Of a stretch of 64,000 nt of DNA, positions 6,001-28,889 are shown piece after piece. Every line of letters starts with the position of its first letter. Positions within the stretch are counted from its first letter, which is position 1. The notes beneath the pieces were generated by a model that had not been told where the DNA came from, did no database searches, and worked only from the letters and a program-made list of their open reading frames with translations. Both the position numbers and the translations under genes were made by a program. Source of the DNA: an uncultured Holophagales bacterium (GTDB lineage Bacteria; Acidobacteriota; Thermoanaerobaculia; Multivoradales; UBA5704); the NCBI GenBank assembly GCA_963842525.1, contig CAWJGT010000009.1, positions 1,568,001 to 1,632,000 of the forward strand. Reading direction: 5' to 3'.

Positions 6001-9000
6001 GTGGCCCTGGTGACGATGCACCACATCGCGAGCGACGGCTGGTCCATGGGCGTGCTGGTGCGGGAGCTCACGGCGCTGTACACGGCCTTCCTGGAGGGGA
6101 GGCCGTCGCCGCTGCCAGAGCTGCCGGTGCAGTACGCCGATTTCGCCGCCTGGCAGCGGGCCTGGCTGACCGGGGAGGTCCTGGATTCCCAACTCGGCTT
6201 CTGGCGCGAGCATCTGGCCGGCGCCTCGCCGGTGCTGGACCTGCCGGCCGACCGGCCGCGCCCGGCGGTCTTCAGCGAGCGCGGCGGGCTGCGCGAGCGG
6301 CGGCAGCCGGCGGAGGTCGCGGCCGCCCTGGCGGCGTGGGGCCGGCGCGCCCACGCCACGCCGTTCATGGCCCTGCTGACGGTCTGGAAGGTGCTGCTCC
6401 ACCGCCTGACGGGCGCCGTCGACCTCCCGGTCGGCACGCCGATCGCCAACCGCGGCCGCCTGGAGCTGGAGGGCCTGATCGGCTTCTTCGTCAACACCTT
6501 GACGCTACGCACGCGCGTCGCGCCGGAGCTGTCCCTGCGCGAGATGACCGCCCGGGTCCGCGAGGGAGCCCTCTCCGCCTATGGGCACCAGGAGATGCCG
6601 TTCGAGCGGCTGGTAGAGGAGCTGACGCCGGAGCGCAGCCTCGCCCAGTCGCCCCTGTTCCAGGTGATGTTCGTGCTGCACAACAACCCCCGCGAGGACC
6701 TGGCGCTGCCGGGGCTCACCCTGGATCGCCTGCCGTCGCGGGCGGTGACCTCCAAGTTCGACCTCACGCTGTTCCTGACGCAGCGGGGCGACGGTCTCGC
6801 GGAGCAGATGGAGTACGCCTCCGACCTCTTCGACGCGGTGACGATCGACCGCTGGCTGGACCATTTCGGAGTCCTGCTGGAGGCGGGCTTGGCGGCGCCG
6901 GACCTGCCGCTCGGCGACCTGCCGCTGCTTTGCGCGGCCGAGCGCCACCAGCTGCGCTGCGAGTGGAACACCGCCGCCGAGGTGGGACCTCTCCTCCCGG
7001 TCCATATCCAAGTGGCGGAGCAGGCGTCGCTGGCACCGGAACGCACCGCCGTGATCGACGGCGCGCGGCATCTCTCCTATGTCGAGGTGGACCGCCTGGC
7101 GGAGGCGCTCGCCTCTCGCCTGGACGCCCGCGGCGTGGCCACCGACGCACCGGTGGGTATCTTCCTAGAGCGGGGCTGGGAGATGGCGGTGAGCCTGCTC
7201 GCGGTGCTCAAGGCGGGCGGCGGTTGTCTACCGCTCGATCCTGGCTATCCGCCCGACCGCCTGGCCTTCATGCTGGCGGACTCCGGAGCCCCTGTGCTGA
7301 TCACCAAGGAGCGCCTGATGTCCCAGCTGCCGGCGTTCGCCGGGCAGGTGGTGCGGGTCGAGGACGCCGAGGAGGAAACGAGCACTGTCTGGGTGGAAGC
7401 GCAGGCCGACGCCGAGTCGTTGGCCTATGTGGTCTACACCTCGGGCTCCACGGGCCGGCCCAAGGGGGTCGAAGTGCCGCACCGTGTGCTGTCGAACCTG
7501 ATCGCCTGGCAGCTCGCGGATGCCCGGGTGCCGCAGGCCCGGACGCTGCAGTTCGCCTCGCCGAGCTTCGACGCCTCCCTCCACGAGGTCTTCGCCACCC
7601 TGGCGGCGGGCGGCACGCTGGTGGTCGCCACCTCCGAGCACCGGCGGGATCCCGACGCGCTGCTGGCCTGGCTGCGGGAAGCGGCGGTGGAGCGCCTGTT
7701 TCTGCCCTATGTCGCCCTGCAGCAGCTCGCCGAAGCCTGGAGCCGGGCGGGCGGTGGGGAGCCGCTCCATCTGCGCGAGGTGATGACGGCCGGCGAGCAG
7801 CTCCGGGTCACCCCGGAGATCACCGCCTTTTTCCGCTCCTTGCCGGGCGCGGTGCTGTACAACGACTACGGGCCTTCCGAAACCCACGTCGTGACCTCGT
7901 GGGCGCTGGCTGGAGACCCTGGCGCGTGGCCGGCCCTGCCGCCGATCGGCCGGCCGCTGGCGAGCACCTCGGTCCACGTGCTTGACCGCCAGTCGCAACC
8001 CGTGCCGCTCGGCGTGCCCGGCGAGCTGTACCTGGGCGGGATCATGGTGGCGCGCGGCTATCTGGGCCGGCCGGACCTCACCGCCGAGCGCTTCCTGCCG
8101 GACCCGTGGAGCGAGCAGCCGGGAGGCCGCCTGTACAAGACCGGCGACCTGGCGCGCTGGCGCCCCGCCGGAGCGGTCGACTTCCTAGGCCGCGTCGACT
8201 TCCAGGTGAAGATCCGCGGCTTCCGGGTGGAGCCGGCGGAGATCGAGGCGGTGCTCCTGGCGCACCCGGCGGTGAGCGAGGCCGCCGTGGTGGTCCGCGG
8301 CGCCGGCGCGCGGCGCCGGCTGGTGGCGTTCGTGCAGCCCGCCGGGGCAGTCGAGGCCGGGGACGGTCTGCACGAGGCGCTGTGGGCCTACCTCCGGGAG
8401 CGCCTGCCGGACTACATGGTGCCGGCGGCGATCGTGGCCCTGGAGGCCTTCCCGCTGACCCCCAGCGGCAAGGTGGACCGCCGGTCGCTGCCGGAGATCG
8501 AGGCGATGGAGGCCGGTGTGCCGGCCGGCCCGCGCACGCCGGTCGAGGAGATGGTGGCGGGGATCTGGTCGGAGCTCCTGAGCGTGGGGGAGGTGGGGCC
8601 GGAGCAGGACTTCTTCGCTCTCGGCGGGCATTCGCTGCTAGCCACGCGGGTGGTGGCCCGGGTGCGCTCCACCTTCGGGGTGGAGCTGCCGGTGCGGGCG
8701 ATCTTCGAAAGCCCGACCCTGGCCGGCTTCGCCGCCGTGGTGGCCGCGGGCCTGCGCTCGGGCACGGGGCTGGTGGCGCCGCCGACGATCGAGCGGGCCG
8801 ACCGGCGGCAGCCGTTGCCGCTCTCCTTTGCCCAGCAGCGCCTCTGGTTCCTCGCCCAGTTGGAGCCGGGCAGCGCGGCGTACAACCTGCCGGCGGGCCT
8901 GCGGCTGACCGGCCGCCTGGTGGTGCCGGCCTTAGCGGCGGCCCTGGCCGAGATCGCGCGCCGGCACGAGGTGCTGCGCACCACCATCGCGACAGTCGGC

Positions 9001-12000
9001 GGCGAGGCGGTGCAGGTGGTCGCGCCGGAGCCACCGGGGAGCCTGCCCTGCGTCGACCTGCGGGGCCTGCCGGCGGCGGCCCGGGAGGAGGAGGTCCGGC
9101 GCCTGGCGCGGCAGGAAGCCCTGGCGCCGTTCGACCTCTCCCGGGGCCCGCTGCTGCGCAACTCGCTGCTGTCGCTAGCGGCCGACGAGCACGTCGTGCT
9201 CGTGACGATGCACCACATCGCGAGCGACGGATGGTCGATGGGCGTGCTGACCCGCGAGCTGAAGGCGCTGTACGAGGCCTTCGTGGGCGGCCAGCCGTCG
9301 CCGTTGCCCGAGCTGTCCGTGCAGTATGCGGACTTCGCCGTCTGGCAGCGCGGCTGGCTCTCGGGCACGGTGCTCGCGGCGGAGCTGGAACACTGGCGCC
9401 GGCAACTCGCAGGGGCTCCGGCGGCCACCGAGCTGCCGCTCGACCGGCCGCGGCCGGCGGTGCGGAGCTGGCGCGGCGGCCTGAGGACATTGGCGCTGCC
9501 GGCCGCGACCTCGGCCGCGCTGGTCTCGCTCGCGCGCTCGTCCGGGGCGACACTGTTCATGACGCTGCTCGCGGCCTGGCAGAGCCTGCTCCACCGCTAC
9601 ACCGGGCAGCTCGACCTCACCGCGGGCACGCCGATCGCGGGCCGTAACCACCTGCAGCTGGAAGGGCTGATCGGCTGTTTCGTCAACACCCTCGTACTGC
9701 GCACAGACCTCGGCGGCGACCCCGGTTTCCTGGAGCTGGTGGGCCGGTTGCGCCAGGTCACCCTGGACGCTTACGCGCACCAGGACCTGCCGTTCGAGAA
9801 GCTGGTGGAGGAGCTGCAGCCGGACCGGAACCTCAGCCACTCGGCACTGTTCCAGGTGATGTTCATCCTGCAGAACACGCCGCAGGAGCGCCTGGAGCTG
9901 CCGGGGCTGGAGATGGCGGCGCTCGGCGGCCAGGGCCTCGAGGCCAAGTTCGACCTCACCGTCGCGGTGACCGAGGAAGGGGGGCGGCTGCGCGCGGCTC
10001 TCGGCTACGCGGCCGAGCTGTTCGACGGCGCCACGGCCGAGCGGCTGCTCGGCCACTTCGCGGAGCTGCTCGGCGCCGCCGTGCTGGAGCCGTCGGCGCG
10101 GCTCTCGGAGCTGCCGCTGCTGCCGGCGGAGCAAAGGTGGCAGCTCCTGGGCGAGTGGAACGACCGGCCGGGCGAGGCGCCGCCGCGGGCCTGCCTGCAC
10201 GAGCTGTTTGCCACCCAGGCGCGGCGGACCCCGAACGCGGTGGCCCTGGTCGACGGCACCCGGCGGGTGAGCTTCGGCGAGCTCGACGAGTGGTCGGACG
10301 CCCTGGCCTCGGCGCTACTGGAGCGCGGGCTCGGCGACGGCGCCCAGGTGGGTTTCTTCGTGGAGCGCGGCGCCGCCATGGTGGCCGCCCTGCTGGGGGT
10401 GCTCAAGGCCGGGAGCGCCTACGTGCCGCTCGACCCCGCCTATCCGCGCGAGCGCCTGTGTCGCATGCTGGAGGGCTCGGGAGTGGCGGCGGTGCTGACC
10501 CAGGAGGCCCTGCGCGAGCTGCTGCCGGCCGGCGCGCCATCCTTGACTCTGGAGGAGCTGGGGGTGGGCGGACGGGGCCGGAAGCGGGGAATCGTGGCGC
10601 CGGAGTCGTTGGCCTACGTCATCTACACCTCGGGCTCGACTGGCCGCCCGAAGGGGGTGGGCATCGAGCACCGCAGCGCGGCCGAGCTGCTGGCCTGGGC
10701 GGCGAGCGCCTACAGCCGGGAGGAGATCGCCGGGGTCCTCGCCGTCACCTCGATCTGCTTCGACCTGTCGGTGTTCGAGCTGTTCGTGCCGCTGTCGCTC
10801 GGCGGCACGGTGATCCTGGCGCGCGACGCCCTGGCGTTGCCCGAGCTGCCGGCCTGGGGCGAGGTGACGCTGATCAACACGGTGCCGTCGGCGATGGCGG
10901 AGCTGGTGCGTCAGGGCGCCGTGCCGTCGTCGGTGAGGACGGTGAACCTGGCGGGCGAGCCGCTGCGCAACGACCTCGCCCAGGCGATCCATGCCGCCGG
11001 CGGCGCGGGCGTGCGGCGGGTGCTCAACCTGTACGGCCCGTCGGAGGACACCACCTACTCCACCGGTGCCGAGGTGGTGCCGGGCAGCCGGCGCGAGCCC
11101 TCGATCGGCCGCCCCTTGCTGCGCACGCAGGCGTACCTGGTGGACCCGTCGGGCGGGGCGGTGCCGCTGGGGGGGGCCGGAGAGCTGTGGCTCGGCAGCG
11201 CCAGCCTGGCCCGGGGCTATCTCGGGCATCCGGAGCTGACCGCGGAGCGGTTCGTGCCCGATCCCTTCGGCGTGCAGCCGGGCAGACGGCTTTATCGCAC
11301 CGGCGACCTCGCCCGCTTCCGCACCGACGGCGAGCTCGAGTACCTGGGCCGGGTGGACCAGCAGGTCAAGGTGCGCGGCTTCCGGATCGAGCTGGGGGAG
11401 GTAGAGGTCGCCCTCGGGCAGCACCCGGACGTGCGCGAGGCCATTGCCGGGATCGTGGAGAGCGCCCCGGGGGAGAAGCGCCTGGTCGCCTGGGTGGCGG
11501 CGGGCGTGCCGGGAGAGCCGCTGGCGCCGCGGCTGCGGAGCCACCTTCGCGCCCTGCTGCCCGAGCCCATGGTGCCCTCGCTCTTCGTCGAGGTGGACGC
11601 CCTGCCGCGGCTACCCAACGGCAAGGTGGACCGGCGCGCGCTGGCCTCTCTGGCAGCGCGGGAGGAGGCGCGGCCGGCCGGCGACGGCCGGGCGCCGCGC
11701 ACCGCCGAGGAAGAGCTGCTCGCCACCCTGTGGGCCGGGGTGCTGGGACGCGAGGCCGTCGGCCTCCACGACAACTTCTTCGACCTCGGCGGGCACTCCT
11801 TGCTGGCGATGCGCATCGTCACCCGGGCGAGCGAGGCGTTCGGGATCGAGGTCCCGCTGCGCTGGCTGTTCGAGCAGCCGACCGTGGCGGATCTCGCGCG
11901 GCGGGTCGCGGCCGCCCGCAGCGAGGAGCGCGGGCTGCTGCTCCCCTGCATCGCGCCGGTGCCGAGGACCGGCCCCCTGCCGCTGTCCTTCGCCCAGGAG

Positions 12001-14400
12001 CGGCTGTGGCTCGTCGATCAGCTCGATCCCGGCAACCCGGCCTACAACATGCCGCTGGCGCTGCGCCTCCAGGGCCACCTGGACGCCGGAGCGCTCGCCG
12101 TGGCGCTCGGCCAGGTGGTGGCCCGGCACGAGGTGCTGCGCACCACCTTCGGGATCGCCGGGGGCCAGCCGGTGCAGGTCGTGCACCCGGTCGGTTCGCC
12201 GCTCGTGCCGGGCGTCGACCTGGGCGCCCTGGAGCCGGGGGAGCGCGAGGAGGAGCTGGCGCGGCTCCTGCGCGAAGGCGCCGCGGCCCCCTTCGACTTG
12301 GCGCGCGGGCCGCTCTGGCGCGTCGTCCTGTTCCGCCTGGCGCCGCGGGAGCACGCCCTGTTCTGCAACCTCCACCACATCGTCCATGACGAATGGTCGA
12401 CGGGGATCCTGGTGCGGGAGCTGGAGGCCCTCTACGCCGCCATCCGGAGCGGCCGGCCCTCGCCCCTGCCGCCGCTGCCGGTGCAGTACGCCGACTTTGC
12501 CGTCTGGCAGCGGCAGTGGCTCACCGACGAGTTGCTGGAGGGCCGGATCGATGAGCAGCGGCGGCGGCTGGGGGGCGGCCTGCCGGTCCTGCGGCTGCCG
12601 ACCGACCGCCCGCGCCCGCGGCGGCCGAGCTTCCGCGGCGGCACGATCCCGTTGCGCGTGCCGGCCAGCCCGGCCAGCGCCCTCGCCCGCCTGGGGCGCG
12701 AGGAGACCGCCAGCCCGTTCATGGTCCTGCTGGCGGCGCTCAAGGCCTTCCTCTACCCGTACAGCGACCGCTCGTCCGTGGCGGTGGGGACCGACTTCGC
12801 GGGGCGGGGGCGGCTTGAGGTCGAAGGCCTGCTCGGCTTCTTCGTCAACGTCCTGCTGCTCCACACCGATCTCGGCGGGGACCCCAGCTTCCGGGAGGTG
12901 GTGCGCCGGGTGCGCTCCTCCACCCTGGAGGCCTACGCGGACCAGGACCTGCCTTTCGAGCGCGTGATCGCGGGCCTCCAGCCGCAGCGGGAGTCGGGGG
13001 TCCCCGGCGTCCAGGTCCTGTTCGTCCTCAGGAGCCCCGAGAGCGCCAGGCTGCGGCTGCCCGAGGTGGACGCCGCCCAGATCCCCCTGCTGCGGGACAC
13101 CTGCAAGTTCGACCTGGTGCTGGTCGTCGACGCCGGCGAGGAGGAGATCACCGGCGCCCTGTCCTACAGCACCGATCTGTTCGACGGCGGCACCGCGGAC
13201 CGTATCGCCCGGCAGCTCGAGGGCTTCCTGGTCGCGGTCGCCGCCGGCCCCGAGATCCGTCTCGGTCCATTGCACGAAAGACAGCAGATCTTCACCCAGG
13301 AAAGGGGGTCCGGCATGTCCGGCGAGATGGAGGAGAGGGACGGCAGCCCGCGTCCCAAGACCACGTTCAAGAGGCGCAGCGGCAGCCGCAGAGGGGGGGT
13401 CGACCTCTCCCGGATGGACCTCGTGCGGCTGGGGGAGATGAGCCCCGGGCAAACCCTGCCTCTCCTCGTCGAGCCTAACGGCCTGGAACTCGACCTCGCC
13501 GAATGGCTGGCGGCCAATCGCGAGCTTCTGGAGAGCCGGCTGGCGTCCCACGGCGCCGTGCTGTTCCGCGGCTTCGGCATCCGCTCCGCCGCGGCCTTCG
13601 AGCGCTGCGCCCAGGTGCTCTGCCCCGAGCTCTACGGCGAATACGGGGACCTCCCCCGCGAGCAGTTCGGCGAGAAGATCTACTCCTCGACGCCCTATCC
13701 GCCGGATCAGCCGATCCTGTTCCACAACGAGAGCTCGCAGATGCACCTCTGGCCGCTGCGGCAGTTCTTCTGCTGCCTGACGGCGGCCCGGGAAGGTGGG
13801 GAGACGCCGCTCGCCGACGGCCGCGAGGTCTACCGCCGGCTGGATCCGGCGCTGGCGCGCCGGTTCGCGGAGAAGGGCCTGCTCTACGTGCGCAACTTCT
13901 CCGACGGCCTCGACATCGACTGGCGGGAGTTCTTCCGCAGCTCCGATCCGGACACGGTTGAGGCGTACTGCCAGAGCGCCTGCATCTCCTGCGAGTGGGG
14001 CGACGGGTTCCTGCGCACCCGCAAGCTCGCCCCCGCCGTGGCGGCCCATCCGAGGACCGGCGAGACGGTGTTCTTCAACCAGATCCTGGCTCACCACATC
14101 TCGTGCCTGCCGCACGAGGTGCAGGAGTCGCTGCGCTCGCTGTTCCGCGAGGACCTCCTGCCGCGCAACGTCTACTACGGCGACGGCTCGCCGATCGAGG
14201 ACGGGGTGGTCGATGAGATCCGCGCCCTCTATGAAGAGGTGGCGGTCCAGTTCCGCTGGCAGGAGGGCGACATGATCGTGGTCGACAACATGCTGACCTC
14301 GCACGGCCGCCGGCCCTTCGCCGGCCCGCGGCAGATCCTGGTGGCGATGGGCGATATGGTGCGGTCCGAGGACGTCTGGCCCGGGCCCGCCAGCGACTGA
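1..14400 (+). CDS. NRPS, 5'-truncated: (C)-A-T-C-A-T-C-A-T-C-A-T-C-TauD, with a C-terminally fused SyrP/TauD-like hydroxylase
   Basis: 4799-aa ORF beginning mid C domain. Hand-read codes: A1 DATKIGQVAK (Asx-like), A2 NAWFLGHVVK (Leu-like), A3 DAHFMADVVK (Pro-clade), A4 DLFNNALTYK (Ala). Last C has HHIVHDEW; TauD part has FHNESS and DNMLTSHGR. Confidence 0.96.
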   Translation: MTLLAAWKGLLHRYTGQLDLTVGTPIAGRTHLQVEGLIGFFVNTLVLRADLAGDPGFQELLGRVRQIVLDAYTHQDLPFERLVEELQPDRSLSHSALFQVLFTLQNTPQERLELPGLELTALPGSSGEAKFDLSLALGEEGGRLRAVLSYAAEIFDAPTAERLVAHFTELLAAVTRDPAARLSDLPLLREAERHELLVEWNDTRRSLTEGVCVHQLFEAQVERSPEALAVVCAGEALSFGELNRQANRLAHELRGMGVGPESRVVLWVRRSPAMLVGVLGILKAGGAYVPMEAEPPRERLTAILEDLAREGEPPIVVAPAELAGRLAKQRARLVPLEGAGSRSGEENPASGVGLHHAVYLIYTSGSTGRPKAVEVEHGHLLNYLQGIEDRLRLGPGSHWALMQPLSVDACKTALYPPLISGGTLHVVPEERILDGPWLADYLSRHEMDVLKLAPSHLIALQDAVPEADLLPRQWLILGGEASRRDWLLGLRAKGGCRILNQYGPTETTVAVLACEVRADLAGGPSQTVPLGRPLANSRVYVLDAALRPMPPGVAGELCIAGHGLARGYFGRPALTAEKFIPDLFAKAAEPGSRLYRSGDLARYLANGELEFLGRIDHQIKIRGFRIEPGEIEAVLCRHPAVAEAVVTGWEERPGALRLAAYLAGTQRPSTEELRGFLAERLPAAMVPSAFVFLDTLPRTAHGKVDRRSLPLPEALREESAQAPRTPVEEVLAAVWGDVLGLARVGVEDDFFALGGHSLLAVRVVSRLREALGVELPLRALFESPTLEGVAAAVEELRRGGERPVLPPIVRVPREGPLPLSFAQQRLWFLDQLEPGSAAYNIPAGLRLRGRLEVPVLAAALREIACRHEVLRTTFVAVDGDPVQAIGAEPPASLPVIDLRALPESARAEEVRHLARQEALAPFDLSRGPLLRSSLLALAAEEHVALVTMHHIASDGWSTGVLVREIKALYEAFLEGRPSPLPELAVQYADFAVWQRGWLTGEALAQELEYWRRQLAGSPAATALPLDRPRPAVRSWRGGCRTAALAGPLTTALRQLARSSGTTLFMTLLALWKSLLHRYTGQPVLTVGIPMAGRNHLHLEALIGCFVNTLALRADLGGDPGFLDLLGRVRQVTLDAYAHQNLPFEKLVEELQPDRSLRHTALFQVMFTLQNAPQERFELPGLELTALEGSNPEAKFDLVLALRETADGLAATLVYGAELFDGSTAGRMLEHLQQLAESAAAEPGTAISRLSLLPAAQRHQLVAEWNGPGPAAEDAPIHRQVERQAAAAPERMAVRDERSSYAYGELNAHANRLARHLLAMGLAAEDRVCVLLERSADLVMALLAVLKAGGAYVPLDPSYPEERLAFLIADSQAGVDRPLVITREGALAALPADRVGRARVVRLDADAAAFADESGENLPHEGLPGQLAYVIYTSGSTGRPKGVAVTQGSLSGLVAWHGEVFAVVPGDRASQIASPAFNAATWEIWPYLAQGASLAIPKAETRSSPDLLVRWLVEQAVSLCFLPTPLAEALLAEERLDRLPLRALLTGGDRLHLGPPPGLPFALYNHYGPTECTVVATWQRVESGAEGPPPIGRPIAGTEAYIVDAAGNLVPLGAPGELWIGGGSLARGYLGRPGLTAERFTPHPWGGPGLRLYRTGDLVRRLSGGELAFLGRIDRQVKVRGFRIELGEVEAALYAHPVVQSCAVVVRGNPAEDLHLAAYVVAAAMGPAGGAELRAFLQDRLPGPMVPATFTFLAELPLTPNGKIDLRSLPDEIPDKILSTAPRTPIEELLAEVWSDVLGLPRVGVEDDFFALGGHSLPAVRVVSRLREALGVELPLRALFEAPTLGGLAAAVEELRRGSERPALPPIVRVARDGPLPLSFAQQRLWFLAQLEPGSAAYNIPAGLRLRGRLEVPVLAAALAEIARRHEVLRTTFGVAGGEAVQVIAPEPLGGLPVIDLRSLPEAVRAEEVRRLARREGLAPFDLSRDPLLRSSLLALAAEEHVALVTMHHIASDGWSMGVLVRELTALYTAFLEGRPSPLPELPVQYADFAAWQRAWLTGEVLDSQLGFWREHLAGASPVLDLPADRPRPAVFSERGGLRERRQPAEVAAALAAWGRRAHATPFMALLTVWKVLLHRLTGAVDLPVGTPIANRGRLELEGLIGFFVNTLTLRTRVAPELSLREMTARVREGALSAYGHQEMPFERLVEELTPERSLAQSPLFQVMFVLHNNPREDLALPGLTLDRLPSRAVTSKFDLTLFLTQRGDGLAEQMEYASDLFDAVTIDRWLDHFGVLLEAGLAAPDLPLGDLPLLCAAERHQLRCEWNTAAEVGPLLPVHIQVAEQASLAPERTAVIDGARHLSYVEVDRLAEALASRLDARGVATDAPVGIFLERGWEMAVSLLAVLKAGGGCLPLDPGYPPDRLAFMLADSGAPVLITKERLMSQLPAFAGQVVRVEDAEEETSTVWVEAQADAESLAYVVYTSGSTGRPKGVEVPHRVLSNLIAWQLADARVPQARTLQFASPSFDASLHEVFATLAAGGTLVVATSEHRRDPDALLAWLREAAVERLFLPYVALQQLAEAWSRAGGGEPLHLREVMTAGEQLRVTPEITAFFRSLPGAVLYNDYGPSETHVVTSWALAGDPGAWPALPPIGRPLASTSVHVLDRQSQPVPLGVPGELYLGGIMVARGYLGRPDLTAERFLPDPWSEQPGGRLYKTGDLARWRPAGAVDFLGRVDFQVKIRGFRVEPAEIEAVLLAHPAVSEAAVVVRGAGARRRLVAFVQPAGAVEAGDGLHEALWAYLRERLPDYMVPAAIVALEAFPLTPSGKVDRRSLPEIEAMEAGVPAGPRTPVEEMVAGIWSELLSVGEVGPEQDFFALGGHSLLATRVVARVRSTFGVELPVRAIFESPTLAGFAAVVAAGLRSGTGLVAPPTIERADRRQPLPLSFAQQRLWFLAQLEPGSAAYNLPAGLRLTGRLVVPALAAALAEIARRHEVLRTTIATVGGEAVQVVAPEPPGSLPCVDLRGLPAAAREEEVRRLARQEALAPFDLSRGPLLRNSLLSLAADEHVVLVTMHHIASDGWSMGVLTRELKALYEAFVGGQPSPLPELSVQYADFAVWQRGWLSGTVLAAELEHWRRQLAGAPAATELPLDRPRPAVRSWRGGLRTLALPAATSAALVSLARSSGATLFMTLLAAWQSLLHRYTGQLDLTAGTPIAGRNHLQLEGLIGCFVNTLVLRTDLGGDPGFLELVGRLRQVTLDAYAHQDLPFEKLVEELQPDRNLSHSALFQVMFILQNTPQERLELPGLEMAALGGQGLEAKFDLTVAVTEEGGRLRAALGYAAELFDGATAERLLGHFAELLGAAVLEPSARLSELPLLPAEQRWQLLGEWNDRPGEAPPRACLHELFATQARRTPNAVALVDGTRRVSFGELDEWSDALASALLERGLGDGAQVGFFVERGAAMVAALLGVLKAGSAYVPLDPAYPRERLCRMLEGSGVAAVLTQEALRELLPAGAPSLTLEELGVGGRGRKRGIVAPESLAYVIYTSGSTGRPKGVGIEHRSAAELLAWAASAYSREEIAGVLAVTSICFDLSVFELFVPLSLGGTVILARDALALPELPAWGEVTLINTVPSAMAELVRQGAVPSSVRTVNLAGEPLRNDLAQAIHAAGGAGVRRVLNLYGPSEDTTYSTGAEVVPGSRREPSIGRPLLRTQAYLVDPSGGAVPLGGAGELWLGSASLARGYLGHPELTAERFVPDPFGVQPGRRLYRTGDLARFRTDGELEYLGRVDQQVKVRGFRIELGEVEVALGQHPDVREAIAGIVESAPGEKRLVAWVAAGVPGEPLAPRLRSHLRALLPEPMVPSLFVEVDALPRLPNGKVDRRALASLAAREEARPAGDGRAPRTAEEELLATLWAGVLGREAVGLHDNFFDLGGHSLLAMRIVTRASEAFGIEVPLRWLFEQPTVADLARRVAAARSEERGLLLPCIAPVPRTGPLPLSFAQERLWLVDQLDPGNPAYNMPLALRLQGHLDAGALAVALGQVVARHEVLRTTFGIAGGQPVQVVHPVGSPLVPGVDLGALEPGEREEELARLLREGAAAPFDLARGPLWRVVLFRLAPREHALFCNLHHIVHDEWSTGILVRELEALYAAIRSGRPSPLPPLPVQYADFAVWQRQWLTDELLEGRIDEQRRRLGGGLPVLRLPTDRPRPRRPSFRGGTIPLRVPASPASALARLGREETASPFMVLLAALKAFLYPYSDRSSVAVGTDFAGRGRLEVEGLLGFFVNVLLLHTDLGGDPSFREVVRRVRSSTLEAYADQDLPFERVIAGLQPQRESGVPGVQVLFVLRSPESARLRLPEVDAAQIPLLRDTCKFDLVLVVDAGEEEITGALSYSTDLFDGGTADRIARQLEGFLVAVAAGPEIRLGPLHERQQIFTQERGSGMSGEMEERDGSPRPKTTFKRRSGSRRGGVDLSRMDLVRLGEMSPGQTLPLLVEPNGLELDLAEWLAANRELLESRLASHGAVLFRGFGIRSAAAFERCAQVLCPELYGEYGDLPREQFGEKIYSSTPYPPDQPILFHNESSQMHLWPLRQFFCCLTAAREGGETPLADGREVYRRLDPALARRFAEKGLLYVRNFSDGLDIDWREFFRSSDPDTVEAYCQSACISCEWGDGFLRTRKLAPAVAAHPRTGETVFFNQILAHHISCLPHEVQESLRSLFREDLLPRNVYYGDGSPIEDGVVDEIRALYEEVAVQFRWQEGDMIVVDNMLTSHGRRPFAGPRQILVAMGDMVRSEDVWPGPASD
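2161..2990 (+). repeat. T-C(N-lobe) coding segment repeated with high nucleotide identity at about 5338-6160; the C portion recurs at about 8815-9360
   Basis: Long near-identical runs, e.g. gtccgggtggtctctcgcctgcgcgaggcgctcggggtggagctgccgctgcg and gacgatgcaccacatcgcgagcgacgg, recur in the successive modules. Confidence 0.85.
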
Positions 14401-14448
14401 AGCAGCTTGCAACGAGATCGGGTAGCAATCGATATCAAGGAGACAGCG

Positions 14449-14694
14449 ATGAATCAAGCACCGGCAGCCGGATTCCCCCTCACCACCGCGCCGCGCCACG
14501 TGTTCGACCGCGCCATACACGAGTCGGGGGCGTGCTCCCCGAGCAGATCGACGAGGCAGGTGATCCAGCCCCTGCTGGGCGAGGGTCCAGAGGCACCGCT
14601 GGCTGACGCCCGACTCCCCGTGAGGATGTGGTCAATGTCGTTCGCAATGGAGTCCAATCCCGGCGGAGAGATCTCCGTCTTGCGAAGACTCTAG
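14449..14694 (+). pseudogene. Relic 5' end of an interface-domain NRPS gene (MNQAPAAGFPLT...)
   Basis: AAGGAG RBS at 14437-14442 and ATG at 14449. The first 12 codons align with the start of the NRPS at 16655 (MDNQPAAGFPLT), after which similarity is lost. Confidence 0.6.
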
Positions 14695-14708
14695 ACAATG
14701 GTTATACT
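14680..14708 (+). promoter_or_regulatory. Candidate sigma70-type promoter upstream of the radical SAM gene
   Basis: TTGCGA (14680-14685), 17-nt spacer, TATACT (14703-14708), in the only long intergenic, AT-richer stretch of the window. Confidence 0.55.
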
Positions 14709-14912
14709 TGCTCGCTTGCTAGTGATTGGAGTTGCCCTCATGTTGTATCTACTGGCTGTCCTCCTCTCTTGTCGAGCTTCTTCGAACGGCGGGGGGATCG
14801 GGCGGCGCTTGGTGGCCTGCATCCTCGCCGGGCGATCCTTCTCGGGTTCCCGGCGGATCCTGGTAGTGATGGGGGACGGTGCGTTCCGAAGATGTTTGGA
14901 ATTCTCGTCCTC

Positions 14913-14928
14913 TTTTGAGTTCTCAAAA
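14913..14928. promoter_or_regulatory. AT-rich palindrome, possible operator
   Basis: TTTTGAG-TT-CTCAAAA: perfect 7-bp inverted arms, 22 nt upstream of the AGGAG RBS at 14951-14955. Confidence 0.4.
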
Positions 14929-14963
14929 CAATTTGACGGCGCAGCCGTTCAGGAGATCCGACT

Positions 14964-16622
14964 GTGAATGATCAGATTTCTCTGGACTGCATGGTCATAG
15001 GCTATAACGAGACCCCCTTCGAGCGATATGAGCAACTGCTGATGCAGTACGGGAGGGATACCGAAGCGTACCGCGACCTGCAACTCAGCTTTGTCGAGGT
15101 AGACGGACGGAAGCTGACTTATGCGGGGCTCCTGAGCTCGCTGTGGCACCAGGCCCGGGGCGCGTCCGACCCATGCCGGCAGGGGCCGTTCAAATCCGGT
15201 GACATTCCCAACCTTGCCGCAGTCTATCTCACTATCTATCTGCGGCGGCAGGGATTCACGGCGGACTACCTCAATCTTTTCCAAGACGAGAAGGATCGTT
15301 TGGCCGATATCCTCGCGCACGGAGTGCGTACAGTAGCGATTACCACAACGTTCTATGTTCTTAACTTCCCCGTGACCGAGATGGTCCAGTTCATCCGCAG
15401 CATCGATAGTGGAGTGAAGATCGTGGTGGGGGGGCCCCTCGTTGCAAACCATCTCCGCAATTACCATAACCAGGGCGATCTGATTACGGCATTGGACGAC
15501 ATCGGTGCTGACATCTATGTCCATGACTCGCAGGGTGAATGGACGCTCTGCCAAGTCCTGGCTGCTTTGAAGGGCAAGGGGGACCTCGGGCAGGTCCCCA
15601 ACCTGATCTACCGAGAAAACGGAACTTATCACCGCACGGCTGCACATGGGGAGAACAACTCGTTGGACGAGAACGCCATTGACTGGCGGATGCTGTCGGA
15701 TCACGACCTCGGGCCAACACTGCAGACCCGGACAGCGCGCAGCTGCGCCTTCTCCTGCTCGTTTTGCAACTACCCAACCCGTGCTGGTCGTCTGACTCTC
15801 GCCGGTCTCGACACATTGGAGCGGGAATTCAATTCGATGCGCGACTTGGGGAATATCGAGAATGTGATCTTCATCGATGATACCTTCAACGTGCCGCTGC
15901 CGCGGTTCAAGGAGATTTGCCGGCTTCTCATCGATCGTCAGTACGGTTTCAACTGGTACTCATATTTCCGGTGCAGTAACGCCGATGAGGAAACCTTCGA
16001 TCTCATGGCCGCGAGCGGATGCAAAGGTGTGTTTTTAGGTATTGAATCGGGCTCGCCGCGCATTCTCAAGAATATGAACAAGGCGGCAACAGTCGAGAAG
16101 TACGCAAATGGAATACGCAACCTCAAAGAGCGTGACATCCTCACCTTCGCATCCTTCATCGTCGGCTTCCCCGGGGAGACGCCGGAGACAGTGGGGGAGA
16201 CGGCCGAGTTCCTCACCAGCCACCGTCCGGACTATTATCGGGTCCAGCTCTGGTACAACGAACCAGGAACTCCGATCCATGACCAGGCCGATACCTACGG
16301 CATCATGGGAGACGGCTTCGTCTGGAATCACAAGACGATGGATAGCATGGAGGCGATGGATCACATCGAGCGACTGTTCCTGACCATCGATGGCCCCATC
16401 TGGTTGCCGCAATGGTCGTTTGATTTCTGGATCATTCCCTATTTTATGGGAATGGGGATCAGCCGCAAACAGTTCGATCATCAAATGCGGCTCGCACAGC
16501 AGCTTCTCAGCCTCGAGATCGCGTCCGTTGGACGGAGTACGCGTGAGAAGTTGCAGAACGAAATTCTGGGCGCCATGAAACGGGACATCGCCGGCTGGAA
16601 CCCCGCAGTCTCCAGCGCGTAA
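14964..16622 (+). CDS. Cobalamin-dependent (class B) radical SAM methyltransferase, PhpK-like family
   Basis: GTG start with AGGAG RBS; CxxxCxxC motif (RSCAFSCSFC); B12-binding-type region (VAITTTFYV...IVVGGP); FIDDTFN, GIESGS and IVGFPGET motifs; N-terminal DCxxIGxN pattern resembling the PhpK family. Confidence 0.88.
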   Translation: MNDQISLDCMVIGYNETPFERYEQLLMQYGRDTEAYRDLQLSFVEVDGRKLTYAGLLSSLWHQARGASDPCRQGPFKSGDIPNLAAVYLTIYLRRQGFTADYLNLFQDEKDRLADILAHGVRTVAITTTFYVLNFPVTEMVQFIRSIDSGVKIVVGGPLVANHLRNYHNQGDLITALDDIGADIYVHDSQGEWTLCQVLAALKGKGDLGQVPNLIYRENGTYHRTAAHGENNSLDENAIDWRMLSDHDLGPTLQTRTARSCAFSCSFCNYPTRAGRLTLAGLDTLEREFNSMRDLGNIENVIFIDDTFNVPLPRFKEICRLLIDRQYGFNWYSYFRCSNADEETFDLMAASGCKGVFLGIESGSPRILKNMNKAATVEKYANGIRNLKERDILTFASFIVGFPGETPETVGETAEFLTSHRPDYYRVQLWYNEPGTPIHDQADTYGIMGDGFVWNHKTMDSMEAMDHIERLFLTIDGPIWLPQWSFDFWIIPYFMGMGISRKQFDHQMRLAQQLLSLEIASVGRSTREKLQNEILGAMKRDIAGWNPAVSSA

Positions 16623-16654
16623 TTGTGCCCTCGGCGAAGACTTAGAGGGTGTTT

Positions 16655-19600
16655 ATGGATAACCAACCGGCAGCGGGTTTCCCGCTCACCGAAAGCCAGC
16701 GGAGGCTCTGGTCCCTACGTCAGCAGGGGCTGGCGCCGCGAATTGCCTGCCTCGTTGATCTGATCGGAGAGTTCGAGCCCCAACTGGTGCGTAGAGCGAT
16801 AGAGCAGGTGGTACTGCGCCACGAGATGCTACGCACTGGTTTTCTGCGCAGGCCTGGGATGAGATTCCCGCTCCAAGTGCCGCGGGAGGCAGTGGCGGCT
16901 GGTTGGCTGGAGGTAGATCTTACAGAGGCGACAACTCCGGCGGCTGGCGACCGCTTCGAGGAACTCTGGCACCGCGAGCTGGTCTATGCGGCGGATCGCG
17001 AGGACGACCTCCTGAGGGCCGTGTTGATCACAAGGACGGGGAGCTGCTCCCTCTTGATCAGTGTGCCTTCCCTCTGCGCCGATGTTTTCTCACTGCGGCG
17101 GATCGTTGAGGAGGTGGCCCAAGTCTGCGCCGGCGGCGTGGAGGGCCTCGAAGACCCCGTGCCCTATCTCGACGTCGTTGAATGGCAGGGGAAACTGCTC
17201 ACTGGGAACGATGAGGAAGCTACCCGTGGGCGCGCCTTCTGGCGTCGGCAGGACCTCGGGGCGCTTCAGGCGCCATCTCTGCCATTCGAGGGCGGCTCCG
17301 GCCCTGCGCTCCGCGAGGACCGTGATGTGGTCCCCGCGCGAGTCAGCGTAGACACCGCATACGAGCTCCGTGCGGAGCTGTATACGGCTGCCGAGCGGCA
17401 TGGCGTCTCCCGCGTGGAGATCTTGCGTCTGGCTTGGCGGGTTCTGCTGGCACGCCTGTCAGGAGAGTCTACGTTCCTCCTCCACGAGCTCTTTGACGGT
17501 CGTAGCGACGAGCAACTCCTGTCCATGGTCGGCCCCTTATCACGCTGGATCCCACAGCGCGTTGAGGAGGTGGAAGACCACACTCTGGAGGAGGCTCTCC
17601 GCCGGGTCGGACGGCTCCATGTCGACTCCGAGGTCTGGCAACACCACCTGGAGTGGCCTGCGGAGGCCAATCCCGCGGTGGATGAGGCCATGGTGGGGTT
17701 CGTGGTTGAGTCCTGGCCCAGGTTCTCCGCCGGTGCGGGCCGGGCTCTCGCGGTGCGCCGTCGGCAGTCGTGGAGTGAGCCCTTTAAGCTCGTGCTCTGT
17801 TGTCTCGAGCTCGGAGAAGATCTGGCGGTCGAGCTGCATTATGACGCGAGTCGCCTGTCCCGGCCGGACGTGGAGCACACGGCGGCGCAGCTCGCCGTGC
17901 TTCTTGCGGGACTGAGCTCCGTCGAGCCTCGCTTGCGGCGGCTCTCTCTCACCGGCGAATCCGAAAGCCGAGTCCTGGCGCAGCTCTGCCGCGGAGAAGC
18001 GCTTCGGATCCCTGGGCAGCCGGTCCATCGTCTGATCGAGGCCCAGGCGGCGCTGATTCCGTTGGCGCCGGCGGTGATCTATGAAGATCTGGTCCTGTCC
18101 TACGGTGACCTTAATACCCGAGCCAACCAGCTCGGTCGTGTCCTTCGGCGCTTGGGCGTTACGCCCGACACTCCGGTGGCACTTTTTGTCGGACGCTCGC
18201 CCGAGCTGATGGTCGGGATGCTTGCGATCCTGAAGGCCGGCGGGGCCTACGTCCCCCTCGACGCTGCGCAGCCGAACCGCCGGCTTTCGATGGAGTTGGA
18301 CGACTTGGGGGTGCGGGTCATTGTTACGGAGAACGGTCTAGCCTCTCGGCTGTCCGATTTCCCCGGCGCGGTGGTCCGCATCGATGGCGACCAGGAGGAG
18401 ATCTCATGCGAGCCGAGGGTGGATCTCGAAAGGGGAAGCCTGCCGGAGAACCTCGCTTACATCATCTTCACCTCGGGGTCGACAGGCCGCTCCAAGGGGG
18501 TGGCCGTGGAGCACCGGCAGCTCCTCAATTACATTGAAGGGATCCGGACCCGGCTCAGCCTGGGGACGGGTTGGAGCTACGCCAACGTGTCCACGTTCGC
18601 GGCGGACCTTGGGAACACCACGGTATTCCCTGCGCTGACGAGCGGTGGCTGCCTGCACCTCGTCGCGCAGGAGAGGACTGCGGACCCCGCAGGCATGGTC
18701 GAGTATTTCGAACGGCACCCGGTGGACTGCCTGAAGATCGTGCCGACCCACCTGGAGGCCCTACACGCGATGGCCGAGCCGGAGCGCCTGCTGCCGCGCC
18801 GTCGCCTGGTACTGGGAGGGGAGGCCTCAAAGGTCCGGCATAGCGAGGAGCTGTCGCGGATTGCGGGGGAATGCCGGGTCTTCAACCACTACGGCCCGTC
18901 GGAAACCACCGTCGGCGTGCTCACGTACCCAGTGCCCACAGCCCTTGACAGCCGCTGCCGAACGCTCCCCATCGGCAGCCCGCTCCCCAACACCAGCGTC
19001 TATCTCCTCGACCGTGAAGGCAAGCGAGTGTCGGTCTGGGAGCCGGGAGAGATCCACATAGGCGGTGCCAGCGTGTCGCGCGGGTACTTCGGGCGTCCGG
19101 AGCTGACCGCCGAGAGCTTCGTGCCAGACCCCTTCGCGACGGAGCTGGGAATGCGGATGTACCGGACGGGGGACCTCGCCCGACTCCTGCCGGAAGGGAG
19201 TATCGAGTTCCTCGGTCGTCGCGACCACCAAGTCAAGTTCCATGGCTTCCGGGTGGAGCTCAACGAGATCCGGACACTGCTGAACACGCACCCGCAAATC
19301 CGCGACAGTGTGGTGCAGGCGATACGCGACCGGAATGGCCGCGACGCCCTGATCGCCTACTACGTCTCCCGCCAAGAGCTGGAGTTCGGCTCGCTGCGCG
19401 CCTGGCTCGCCCAGAGACTCGCCGAGGTGATCCTCCCCAACTTCTTCGTCCATCTGCGCAAGCTCCCTCTCACTCTGAACGGCAAGATCAACTATCAGGC
19501 GCTTCCCGGCATCGAAGAGGCCAAGCAGCAGGCGCGGAGCTCCTTCATCGCGCCGCGCACCGAGACCGAAGAGGAGGTGGCGAGAATCTGGTCCGAGGTT

Positions 19601-20002
19601 CTGGGTATCCATCCTGTAGGTGTAGGGGCCAATTTCTTCGAGCTCGGCGGGCACTCGCTCCTGGCCACCCGCATTATCTCCCGGCTGCGTGAGAGGTATC
19701 AGATCGACCTGCCGCTACGCGCGATCTTCGACACGCCAACCGTGGCGGCCCTTTCACGGTCCGTTGAGGCGCGGGCGGCGTCGGCCGCGGTGCCGCTGGC
19801 CGGCATGGGAGCGGAGCGGAGCATTGAGGACGATCTGGCCGAGTTGGAAGGGATCACGGATGAGCAAGCGCAAATCCTTCTTGAAGGCGCCGCTGATCAC
19901 CCCCAAGCGATCCCCGCGATGAAGGAGGCGATTCATCGACTTGCAGCGCTATCGTCCGGAGAAGCTTGCGCTTCCGCCACCGGAGAGATCCAGGATGAGT
20001 GA
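16655..20002 (+). CDS. Single-module NRPS: degenerate C (interface domain)-A(Asp)-T
   Basis: HHxxxDG is replaced by PSLCADV; code DLTKVGHVGK (Asp); GGHSL carrier; acidic docking-like tail. ATG 16655 preferred over GTG 16649. Confidence 0.92.
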   Translation: MDNQPAAGFPLTESQRRLWSLRQQGLAPRIACLVDLIGEFEPQLVRRAIEQVVLRHEMLRTGFLRRPGMRFPLQVPREAVAAGWLEVDLTEATTPAAGDRFEELWHRELVYAADREDDLLRAVLITRTGSCSLLISVPSLCADVFSLRRIVEEVAQVCAGGVEGLEDPVPYLDVVEWQGKLLTGNDEEATRGRAFWRRQDLGALQAPSLPFEGGSGPALREDRDVVPARVSVDTAYELRAELYTAAERHGVSRVEILRLAWRVLLARLSGESTFLLHELFDGRSDEQLLSMVGPLSRWIPQRVEEVEDHTLEEALRRVGRLHVDSEVWQHHLEWPAEANPAVDEAMVGFVVESWPRFSAGAGRALAVRRRQSWSEPFKLVLCCLELGEDLAVELHYDASRLSRPDVEHTAAQLAVLLAGLSSVEPRLRRLSLTGESESRVLAQLCRGEALRIPGQPVHRLIEAQAALIPLAPAVIYEDLVLSYGDLNTRANQLGRVLRRLGVTPDTPVALFVGRSPELMVGMLAILKAGGAYVPLDAAQPNRRLSMELDDLGVRVIVTENGLASRLSDFPGAVVRIDGDQEEISCEPRVDLERGSLPENLAYIIFTSGSTGRSKGVAVEHRQLLNYIEGIRTRLSLGTGWSYANVSTFAADLGNTTVFPALTSGGCLHLVAQERTADPAGMVEYFERHPVDCLKIVPTHLEALHAMAEPERLLPRRRLVLGGEASKVRHSEELSRIAGECRVFNHYGPSETTVGVLTYPVPTALDSRCRTLPIGSPLPNTSVYLLDREGKRVSVWEPGEIHIGGASVSRGYFGRPELTAESFVPDPFATELGMRMYRTGDLARLLPEGSIEFLGRRDHQVKFHGFRVELNEIRTLLNTHPQIRDSVVQAIRDRNGRDALIAYYVSRQELEFGSLRAWLAQRLAEVILPNFFVHLRKLPLTLNGKINYQALPGIEEAKQQARSSFIAPRTETEEEVARIWSEVLGIHPVGVGANFFELGGHSLLATRIISRLRERYQIDLPLRAIFDTPTVAALSRSVEARAASAAVPLAGMGAERSIEDDLAELEGITDEQAQILLEGAADHPQAIPAMKEAIHRLAALSSGEACASATGEIQDE

Positions 20003-27863: not shown

Positions 27864-28889
27864 ATGTCTGAAAAATTGAGCGACAGATTCAATCGGACCA
27901 TTGGTGCTAAACCCAAGTCCCTGTGGCTTTCCAGTGAGGACCCCGTACGATTCGAGCGACTCCTGCCGGAGCGCGATTTGCCTTTGCTGGCCAAGCCCAA
28001 CATGAGTGACATCGATCTGGCCGCCTGGGCAGCGGCCAGCCGCGGACCCGTCGCCGAGCGGCTCACGCGGGCGGGTGGCATCCTATTTCGTGGTTTCAGT
28101 ATCCGCTCTGTCGAAGAATTCGAGCGGTTGTGCAGGGCCGTGTCCCCCGTGCTAATGGACTATAGCGAGAGATCGACGCCGCGCAGTGAGGTCAGCGGCA
28201 AGATCTATACCTCGACCGAGTACCCGGCCGACCAGAACATCCCATTTCACAACGAGCTCTCCTATGCGCAGCGCTGGCCCTTGAAGATCTGGTTTTTCTC
28301 GCTCAAGCCCGCCGCTCAGGGAGGCGAGACCCCGATCGCTGACAGCCGCGCCGTCTTTCGCCGGATTCCCCCCGCGATCAGGGATCGGTTTATCGAGAAA
28401 AATGTGATGTATGTGCGCAACTTTGGCTCGGGACTGGGCTTGAGCTGGCGAGAGGTTTTCCAAACCGAGGAGAAAGCCGTGGTGGAAGATCATTGCCGGA
28501 GAGCTGACATCGAGTTCGAATGGGGGCCAGGAGAGCGGTTGCGAACGAAGGCGATCCGGCCGGCCGTCGCCCAGCATCCTCAGACGGGAGACATCGTGTG
28601 GTTCAACCAGGCGCATTTGCATCATATATCGAGCCTGCCTGCTGCAGAGCGTACCTCCTTGTTGGAGGTCATTTCGCAAGATGAGCTTCCCTTCAATACC
28701 TTTTATGGCGACGGTACGGAGATCGCAGACGAAGACCTGGACGAGATCCGGCAAGCCTACCAGGAGGCCGCGGTGTATTTCCCCTGGGAGGAGGGTGACG
28801 TCTTGATGTTGGACAACATGCTCGTGGCCCACGGCCGGACCTCCTATACGGGACCACGCAAGATCGTGGTGGCGATGGCGGAGGCCTGA
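27864..28889 (+). CDS. Stand-alone SyrP/TauD-family Fe(II)/2-oxoglutarate dioxygenase (aminoacyl-carrier beta-hydroxylase)
   Basis: GGILFRGF, YTSTEYP, FHNELSY, GGETP, WFNQAHL and DNMLVAHGR motifs. Confidence 0.93.
   Translation: MSEKLSDRFNRTIGAKPKSLWLSSEDPVRFERLLPERDLPLLAKPNMSDIDLAAWAAASRGPVAERLTRAGGILFRGFSIRSVEEFERLCRAVSPVLMDYSERSTPRSEVSGKIYTSTEYPADQNIPFHNELSYAQRWPLKIWFFSLKPAAQGGETPIADSRAVFRRIPPAIRDRFIEKNVMYVRNFGSGLGLSWREVFQTEEKAVVEDHCRRADIEFEWGPGERLRTKAIRPAVAQHPQTGDIVWFNQAHLHHISSLPAAERTSLLEVISQDELPFNTFYGDGTEIADEDLDEIRQAYQEAAVYFPWEEGDVLMLDNMLVAHGRTSYTGPRKIVVAMAEA

Follow-up and report, generated by a model that had tools for sequence, protein, structure and literature searches.

What does a B12-dependent enzyme annotated as a phosphorus methylase do in the middle of an assembly line for peptides? 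The question is raised by a 64,000-nucleotide stretch of DNA from an uncultured Holophagales bacterium (assembly GCA_963842525.1, contig CAWJGT010000009.1, positions 1,568,001 to 1,632,000 of the forward strand), hereafter the window, which open reading frame (ORF) listing and Pfam assign to a single large plus-strand cluster of genes for non-ribosomal peptide synthetases (NRPS) and for polyketide synthases (PKS). A B12-binding radical S-adenosylmethionine (rSAM) gene of the PhpK family lies inside its aspartate module and splits it: a condensation (C) domain and a TauD-type dioxygenase domain end the upstream protein, while an interface (I) domain, an adenylation (A) domain with an Asp code and a thiolation (T) domain form the downstream one. 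Most likely the annotated P-methylase modifies the amino acid of an aspartate or asparagine (Asx) module and not a phosphonate. Our full proposal is that it is a stand-alone cobalamin rSAM tailoring enzyme which serves the Asx residue of the adjacent split module and methylates its beta-carbon on the carrier; taken as a whole, this chain of inference falls slightly short of an even chance. Its link to Asx is the strongest part, the timing on the assembly line comes next and the exact chemistry is the weakest.

The rSAM gene (14964-16622, plus strand) starts with GTG about 9 nt behind an AGGAG-type ribosome-binding site and encodes 552 aa, with a B12-binding domain (PF02310, aa 79-164, E 1.2e-10) followed by a Radical_SAM domain (PF04055, aa 258-417, E 1.4e-23) and no extra auxiliary-cluster domain in Pfam. 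A promoter and terminator scan of 14200-16800 gave nothing beyond shuffled expectation. The initial annotation had called the protein PhpK-like, and the NCBIfam model TIGR04479 ("PhpK family radical SAM P-methyltransferase") agrees at 637.2 bits (E 1.5e-191, profile positions 2-502 of 504) against a curated cut-off of 600 bits. A CxxxCxxC motif stands at aa 261 with cysteines that are invariant in 23 of 23 aligned family members, and the window protein retains all columns invariant across these 23 as well as those invariant across 18 members from loci arranged like the window (class 1, described below). The AlphaFold model (pLDDT 85.9, pTM 0.87) has the fold of class B rSAM enzymes, with a Rossmann-like cobalamin domain, a partial TIM-barrel rSAM domain and a C-terminal domain; its Foldseek neighbors in the PDB are TsrM (E 2.9e-20, TM-score 0.55), AprD4, MgmA, CysS (E 4.5e-15 to 6.6e-15 over three entries), OxsB and TokK. 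A sequence search of the PDB returned remote relatives only (AprD4 54.6 bits, TsrM 52.2 and CysS 33.5) and no PhpK-family structure for reading the substrate pocket.

The TauD match covers aa 4493-4782 (E 3.7e-49) of the ORF ending at 14400, right behind a C domain, and the ORF for the downstream protein (16649-20002) is intact and separated from the rSAM stop codon by a gap of 27 nt. Its N-terminal C-like domain gives a weak Pfam Condensation match (aa 11-442, 104-108 bits across the full length), is 27-34% identical to its counterpart in 17 related loci and lacks the HHxxxDG motif in a motif search of 16649-18013. Both the weak match and the missing motif are as expected of the interface domain of TauD-served modules, a type that Reitz et al. 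reportedly defined in 2019. A-domain codes were extracted with our own motif-anchored script. The window's Asp-type A domain, 52-60% identical to the A domains behind the rSAM gene in class-1 loci, reads DLTKVGHVG?. DLTKVGHVGK is an Asp code in tistrellabactin, where the characterised residue is L-erythro-OH-Asp (PMC10391617, Table 1), and the portion of a signature survey available to us lists it as an Asp/Asn code mostly favouring Asp (PMC12283262). The order C-TauD followed by C-A(Asp)-peptidyl carrier protein is described for potashchelin in the accessible part of PMC7100376.

The initial annotation had placed the rSAM gene "directly between" the C-TauD and the interface-A(Asp)-T parts. 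Its gene order is correct; the adverb is not, since between the TauD-ending gene and the interface-domain gene there lies, besides the 1659-nt rSAM gene, a 563-nt spacer with two gene relics. The same insertion of rSAM between TauD and I-A is found in 14 related loci, and also in L006, where the contig ends after I. An internal control is provided by positions 27864-31768. A second TauD stands alone there, next come a C-like domain that lacks HHxxxDG and an A domain whose code, DAKDLGVVDK, is Glu-like, and no rSAM gene lies between the TauD and these domains; the rSAM gene therefore goes with Asp and not with TauD.

Comparison with relatives extends this observation. More than 3350 relatives at E <= 1e-20 were found among 8000 candidates scored, the best 120 being 61-70% identical to the window protein, with P0002 at 70% among the closest, and a 50%-identity library gave 463 representatives at E <= 1e-30. 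For genomic context we used 80 loci from a scan of species-representative genomes. Their hosts are nearly all metagenome-assembled genomes (MAGs) of Acidobacteriota (Pyrinomonadaceae, Blastocatellia, Thermoanaerobaculia and Bryobacteraceae), the exceptions being one Dyella MAG and one unclassified record; all 80 proteins are at most 65% identical to that of the window, so the window's own genome is outside the sample. C, A or T domains occur within 10 kb of the rSAM gene in 73 of the 80 loci (tblastn with the window's domains). The arrangement of the window, class 1 [..T-C-TauD / rSAM / I-A-T-C], is plain in 12 loci and also present in L064, where the I match is split in two, in L015, where the code extraction was mis-anchored, and in the truncated L006; four more loci have [MacB / rSAM / I-A-T]. 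All 17 readable class-1 codes are DLTK[VI]GHVG(K). A second arrangement, class 2 [..A-T-C / rSAM / ~270 aa + A-T-C], carries in 19 loci the code DLTK[IV]GEVG(K) or a near variant, which we take to be an Asn-type code. The code is discussed in the Asp/Asn section of PMC12283262, a source available in part. The piece of about 270 aa is the C-terminal lobe (C-lobe) of a condensation domain in 10 of 10 regions tested (Pfam profile from about 165/190 to 456).

Seventy loci with at least 2.1 kb 3' of the rSAM gene were informative for the next A domain: it has an Asp code in 17, an Asn code in 18, another code in 6 and an unreadable code in 4, and no A domain follows in 25. The rSAM gene occupies a fixed position at the split between C and A in 35 of the 70. 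When all A domains of at least 1200 nt were counted over all loci (n = 159), Asx codes made up 36 (17 Asp and 19 Asn) of the 43 directly 3' of the rSAM gene, with 7 other or none, versus 19 of the 116 elsewhere, with 97 other or none. Fisher's exact test gives p = 4e-15 for this enrichment, a value which overstates independence because the loci are related. The link nevertheless persists after dereplication, since among 53 rSAM clusters at 80% identity 14 have Asp-linked and 15 have Asn-linked members. TauD-interface modules without an rSAM gene in the related loci carry other codes (DSKDLGVVDK, DAWQFGLIDK, DARGVSQMTK and more): the rSAM enzyme tracks Asx, not TauD. The non-Asx codes beside the rSAM gene include the Val-like DAFELGGTFK in L022 and L023. 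Separate clades of Asp-linked and Asn-linked enzymes were considered and rejected, as a quick tree of 77 rows requires 12 and 14 changes; the window's branch on it has a length of 0.74 and an uncertain placement.

The main reason for placing the family on the assembly line, linked to a C-like lobe, is that some of its members are covalently fused to NRPS domains. A search among longer proteins found such members, about 40% identical to the window enzyme: P0121 (A-T-C-rSAM, 646 bits on TIGR04479), P0122 (rSAM-C-lobe-A-T-C, 621 bits), P0123 (rSAM-C-A-T-thioesterase (TE) with a Val-like code, 584 bits) and P0124 (rSAM-C-T-TE, 585.5 bits). The closest representative in the 50% library, P0127 (57% identical), has a carrier domain behind its rSAM part. 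Proteins of 740-815 aa number about 28 among the top 150 of that library; the C-terminal extension of the long forms P0139, P0141, P0158 and P0161 matches a hidden Markov model (HMM) built from the class-2 C-lobes, giving the order rSAM-C-lobe. Pfam scans of 16 long forms found 2 partial Condensation matches and 1 PP-binding match, and rSAM parts only in most of the others. Possible rSAM-NRPS fusions within the loci, read from stop-free stretches upstream of the downstream ORFs, were rejected because the frames differ. Two B12/radical-SAM units per protein occur in P0137 (1133 aa) and P0121 (2558 aa), the latter starting with a condensation C-lobe. A different B12-binding/radical-SAM protein, which the window enzyme does not match at E 1e-30, forms the N-terminal part of a fusion with an NRPS condensation domain at L031:18890-21653 and L035:19112-21611. 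With 36 of 43 adjacent A domains coding for Asx against 19 of 116 others, and with the fusions to NRPS domains, the early guess that the enzyme serves Asx residues has gained strong comparative support.

Where does this leave the family name? NRPS-linked relatives score 639-670 bits on TIGR04479, while 84 more distant 50%-cluster representatives score 428-640 bits, with at least 600 in 10 of the 84; a screen of these 84 for bona fide PhpK or BcpD found none scoring above the NRPS-linked clade. Because this clade tops the PhpK model among the proteins scored, PhpK may be the exception rather than the rule in the family. The initial annotation had suggested a different chemistry for this family; that wording does not fit a family whose highest scores on the PhpK model belong to the NRPS-linked clade.

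A true P-methyltransferase like PhpK would need the "Asp" A domain to load an Asp-like phosphinate whose biosynthetic genes lie beyond the window. The family name and the score over the cut-off speak for this, the PhpK pathway also runs through, and ends in, an NRPS, and the window covers no more than 64 kb of a 1.98-Mb contig. We nevertheless find it hardly credible. The initial annotation saw no PEP mutase or other phosphonate gene in the window, and neither did we: the long plus-strand ORFs are all otherwise assigned (NRPS/PKS, TauD, AsnB, MacB/FtsX, carbamoyltransferase, methyltransferase and CmlA-like), and the motif EDKx5NS, which we take to be that of phosphoenolpyruvate (PEP) mutase, is missing from all six frames of the window and the 80 related loci, 1.36 Mb together. 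No PEP_mutase family member was found by Pfam among 75 neighbor proteins (44 + 31), and a phosphonate or phosphinate pathway as the source of a P-H substrate was not seen in the window or the 80 loci. The A-domain codes are those of ordinary Asp and Asn, and Asn-type pockets would be unsuited to a phosphinate. Modules of the TauD/interface kind are familiar as beta-OH-Asp modules (PMC7100376, in the part available).

We propose beta-C-methylation because PhpK is a methylase, class B enzymes methylate unactivated carbons, C-beta is the only sp3 carbon in the Asx side chain, and the conversion of Val to tert-leucine provides a precedent. The A domain would load L-Asp onto the T domain of the downstream protein, and the TauD fused to the upstream protein would hydroxylate C-beta as in known beta-hydroxy-Asp siderophore modules. 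The rSAM enzyme would abstract a C-beta hydrogen by means of a 5'-deoxyadenosyl radical and transfer a methyl group from methylcobalamin, yielding 3-methyl-Asp or, together with TauD, 3-hydroxy-3-methyl-Asp, and the residue would then be condensed by the upstream C domain. What we infer here is that a methyl group is transferred, that C-beta receives it, that the residue is on the carrier at the time, and where this step falls relative to TauD. Gene order and the fusions suggest that the rSAM enzyme would dock on the interface domain or the C-lobe. Val-like codes beside the enzyme (L022, L023 and P0123) would fit beta-methylation to tert-leucine by analogy.

Several points weigh against this proposal. 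Its chemistry rests on family analogy, and the fold by itself leaves methyl transfer undecided because the neighbors include the non-methylases AprD4, a diol dehydratase, and OxsB, which catalyzes a ring contraction. We know of no natural product containing 3-hydroxy-3-methyl-Asp. The family is not tied to Asx modules alone, as the 25 of 70 informative loci with no A domain right behind the rSAM gene demonstrate. Asp-linked cases, with A domains 52-60% identical to that of the window, may be descendants of one cassette rather than 17 independent events, and the intermixing of Asp-linked and Asn-linked enzymes fits a site common to both residues without identifying it. Homologs of the glutamate mutase E subunit together with AsnB, and sometimes an Asp/Glu racemase, lie close to the rSAM gene in seven loci (Table; the one in L029 matches PF06368 at 403 bits). 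Glutamate (methylaspartate) mutase is the classical B12 route to 3-methylaspartate; the mutase may supply 3-methyl-Asp in these seven loci, the rSAM enzyme doing something else there. Finally, the cluster of the window contains a recombination scar and three frameshifts, and it may not be functional as sequenced.

The proposed action on the carrier can be set against that of a late-stage C-methylase working on the released peptide, at Asx or elsewhere, with the gene's position reflecting a co-inherited cassette of module plus tailoring enzyme. An in-vitro reaction with isolated discodermin D showed methylation by DscE, a cobalamin rSAM methylase from an NRPS cluster (PMC12858407, in the part available), and the window enzyme is a separate protein. 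The sole complex prediction, of the rSAM protein (aa 1-530) with the interface domain from 18-row alignments, scored 0.00 twice and gave no verdict, neither for nor against binding. Against a late-stage enzyme stand the fixed position at the C/A split in half of the informative loci (35 of 70), a downstream protein that begins with a dedicated C-lobe or interface domain, and the fusions that put family members within NRPS proteins or join them to a T domain. The accessible part of a review (PMC8950095) notes for CysS that its substrate may be an intermediate held on a carrier, and both CysS and TokK have been solved with pantetheinylated substrates. The position in Asx modules and the fusions argue for module-linked action, and we consider late-stage methylation unlikely. 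A different chemistry on Asx, such as rearrangement, dehydrogenation, cross-linking or epimerisation at C-beta or C-alpha, would suit the non-methylating fold neighbors AprD4 and OxsB, and a methylase would be less needed in those loci where the glutamate mutase homolog could supply 3-methyl-Asp. On the other hand, PhpK, the family's named member and the only characterised one so named, is a methylase (PMC8950095 and PMC7277169, each available in part), Val-like modules beside family members would fit tert-leucine formation, and Pfam shows no additional auxiliary-cluster domain; we regard a non-methylating role as distinctly unlikely.

It could also be that the gene is intact but idle, the cluster being a decaying mosaic no longer in a working pathway. 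The mosaic itself is visible in base composition: GC and third-position GC (GC3) are 72.5% and 91.4% in the ORF at 1-14400, 56% and 71% in the rSAM gene and 59-67% and 72-83% in the following genes, and GC3 returns to 88-89% in the last two genes. The spacer contains two relics (Table). An 81-aa ORF matches the N-terminus encoded from 16649 in 10 of its first 19 residues (pairwise BLASTP, E 6e-5) and may be what is left of the gene that partnered the high-GC TauD gene; the match is short, a lead and not a proof. About 65 nt 5' of the rSAM start lies what appears to be the frameshifted 3' end of a second, lower-GC TauD gene, with 10 of 15 aa and, in a second frame, 7 of 7 aa identical to the C-terminus of the fused TauD (blastx) and 40 of 51 nt identical to 14329-14379 (blastn). 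We read this as an older [TauD / rSAM / I-A-T] cassette, as in acidobacterial loci, that recombined with a foreign [..C-TauD / I..] gene; the rSAM/I-A-T cassette and the NRPS gene upstream of it appear to differ in origin. An assembly chimera was held to be a less likely cause of the GC jump than real recombination, because the upstream ORF has its own stop codon and the junction shows two different short relics and no shared repeat. At three places a gene is broken into overlapping ORFs by an apparent single-base frameshift: one falls between 30400 and 30681 in an A domain, one near 46686 in a C domain just past HHIVCDG, and one near 53040 in a second C domain, all of these NRPS domains being conserved apart from the shift. 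Sequencing errors may be the cause, or else decay and pseudogenisation. The relics, the GC3 jump and the frameshifts in NRPS/PKS genes speak for an idle gene; against it, the rSAM ORF retains its invariant columns, the I-A-T gene behind it is intact and close, and the frameshifts may be errors of long-read sequencing. We judge an idle gene very unlikely, and it would concern present activity rather than evolved function.

Beta-C-methylation of carrier-bound Asx, if generalised, leads to a wider and more doubtful, though possible, picture. The very large "PhpK family", which abounds in uncultured Acidobacteriota, would consist mainly of enzymes embedded in NRPS systems that methylate beta-carbons. 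A degenerate condensation domain or C-lobe would bring them to split modules, where carrier-bound Asp, Asn and sometimes Val would be their substrates; PhpK would have branched off from them and changed its target from carbon to phosphorus, and the window enzyme would make 3-hydroxy-3-methyl-aspartate with TauD. Automatic annotation calls thousands of these proteins "P-methyltransferase", a name that is probably wrong for the NRPS-linked majority looked at here. If the proposal is true, it adds a tailoring step that lies outside the models of structure-prediction tools for non-ribosomal peptides and bears on NRPS clusters in soil Acidobacteriota that are very large and have no product assigned as yet. 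The rSAM enzyme and the I-A-T protein would then form a tractable pair for studying how cobalamin rSAM enzymes are recruited to assembly lines, and a possible route to beta-branched acidic residues. Full-text literature searches, with most subscription journals outside their reach, returned no PhpK-family enzyme in an NRPS Asx module and no methyl-Asx made by a radical SAM enzyme in a non-ribosomal peptide.

Table. Coordinates of the split Asp module in the window and of glutamate mutase E homologs (about 650 aa) in related loci.
Feature	Sequence	Coordinates	Strand	Basis
NRPS ORF, cut by the 5' edge of the window, C-TauD at its end	window	1-14400	+	Pfam, 5 Condensation stretches
Last C domain of the upstream NRPS, motif HHIVHDE, immediately 5' of TauD	window	11971..13320	+	Pfam and motif
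TauD-type iron/2-oxoglutarate dioxygenase domain, C-terminal fusion on the upstream NRPS, stop included	window	13321..14400	+	Pfam
Spacer, TauD to rSAM gene, 563 nt	window	14401-14963		
81-aa ORF, putative relic of an interface-domain gene start	window	14449..14694	+	BLASTP to N-terminus of ORF 16649-
Putative frameshifted remnant of a second, lower-GC TauD (3' end)	window	14833..14899	+	blastx/blastn
B12-binding/radical-SAM gene, PhpK family (TIGR04479), 552 aa, intact	window	14964..16622	+	Pfam, NCBIfam, motif, model
Interface-type (C-like, non-catalytic) domain, N-terminal in the downstream NRPS protein	window	16649..18013	+	weak Condensation match, no HHxxxDG
A domain, Asp-type code DLTKVGHVG?	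window	18014..19528	+	Pfam AMP-binding, motif-anchored code extraction
T domain (LGGHSL at aa 999) plus C-terminal tail, presumed substrate tether	window	19529..20002	+	PP-binding, aa 976-1037
Mutase E homolog	L021	5968-7968		
Mutase E homolog	L029	13727-16384		Pfam PF06368
Mutase E homolog	L034	3895-5868		
Mutase E homolog	L035	6005-7954		
Mutase E homolog	L051	1755-3707		
Mutase E homolog	L056	11666-13582		
Mutase E homolog	L071	11675-13591		

The first ORF of the window is taken to be cut by its edge because the start falls within a C domain. Behind the I-A-T gene the cluster continues with C-A-T-C-A-T-C, a TauD, the second C-like-A gene, a PKS module and AsnB, then a third TauD, A-T-C-A-T-C, MacB/FtsX, carbamoyltransferase, methyltransferase and a CmlA-like hydroxylase. 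The last four of these make up the 3' end (56938-64000); MacB/FtsX is an exporter, the methyltransferase belongs to class I, and the CmlA-like protein is a di-iron beta-hydroxylase whose gene is truncated at the end of the window. Homologs of MacB, the carbamoyltransferase and CmlA were found repeatedly in related loci. Another split module, C / AsnB / TauD / A-T, is present at 46246-52327 with the unusual A code DARHLALMTK. A similar A domain (DARHLSLMTK) stands in L044 behind AsnB, an Asp/Glu racemase and the rSAM gene, and a similar code, DPRHLALLAK, is printed for an "AMA moiety" in the available part of PMC12283262.

Some of the related loci show the rSAM gene in other company. It is followed by a 3-hydroxyacyl-CoA dehydrogenase, an acyl-CoA dehydrogenase and a HAD-like protein at L010:11698-15155, L018:11947-15373 and L055:7485-10885, a set that we take to resemble those for formation of hydroxymalonyl- or methoxymalonyl-acyl carrier protein, with the rSAM gene presumably at the position expected for the O-methyltransferase. 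In L007, L016, L017, L026, L036, L055 and L066 the rSAM gene has two or three flanking paralogs of 700-800 aa per locus, fourteen proteins in all, with a carbamoyltransferase next to them; examples are L007:904-3078, 3127-5304 and 7061-9214. Six of these paralogs, including the cluster representative, were scanned with Pfam and gave no match. Two of the five loci with no tblastn match, L057 (876-10218) and L078 (9503-18923), carry the rSAM gene in a conserved non-NRPS set of a GHMP-type kinase, a pyridoxal phosphate (PLP) enzyme, an ATP-grasp amino-acid ligase, a fused lyase/beta-eliminating lyase and an M20 peptidase. The kinase/PLP/ATP-grasp set is also present in L011, there with NRPS domains upstream of the rSAM gene.

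The degenerate C-like domain next to a tailoring enzyme recalls the X-domain of glycopeptide NRPSs, a C-like landing pad for trans-acting P450s on carrier-bound substrates; those systems use another enzyme class at another position of the assembly line. The window enzyme shares with PhpK and BcpD, the P-methyltransferases of phosphinothricin tripeptide, TIGR04479 membership and the B12-binding and radical-SAM domains. It differs from them in genomic context: in the window and the 80 loci the neighbors are Asp and Asn modules and phosphonate genes are missing. The module itself is closest to those of cupriachelin, potashchelin and tistrellabactin-type siderophores, in which C-TauD ends one protein and C-like-A(Asp)-T follows (PMC7100376, in the part available). 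The tistrellabactin OH-Asp code is identical to that of the window as far as the latter was read (PMC10391617), and the C-like domain lacks HHxxxDG as in siderophore TauD/interface modules. The TauD/interface beta-OH-Asp module is thus already known, and the rSAM gene between TauD and the interface gene is an addition not described in the accessible text of PMC7100376.

Cobalamin rSAM methylases are also already known from NRPS pathways, as CysS and DscE illustrate. CysS, from the cystobactamid pathway, is a class B rSAM enzyme encoded by an NRPS cluster, and it is believed to work in trans on an intermediate that is carrier-bound (PMC8950095, available in part); it methylates a methoxy group on aminobenzoate and not an Asx side chain, and it is a remote sequence relative (33.5 bits) that belongs to a different family. 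DscE of discodermin, like the PoyC-type peptide C-methylases, offers the comparison for aliphatic side chains of a non-ribosomal peptide: it C-methylates Ala and Val, converting Val to tert-Leu (PMC12858407, in the part available). DscE acts on the released peptide, and neither a fixed split-module position nor a C-lobe partner is described for it in that part of the paper. Both systems share a link to Val, as Val-coded modules adjoin some members of the PhpK family.

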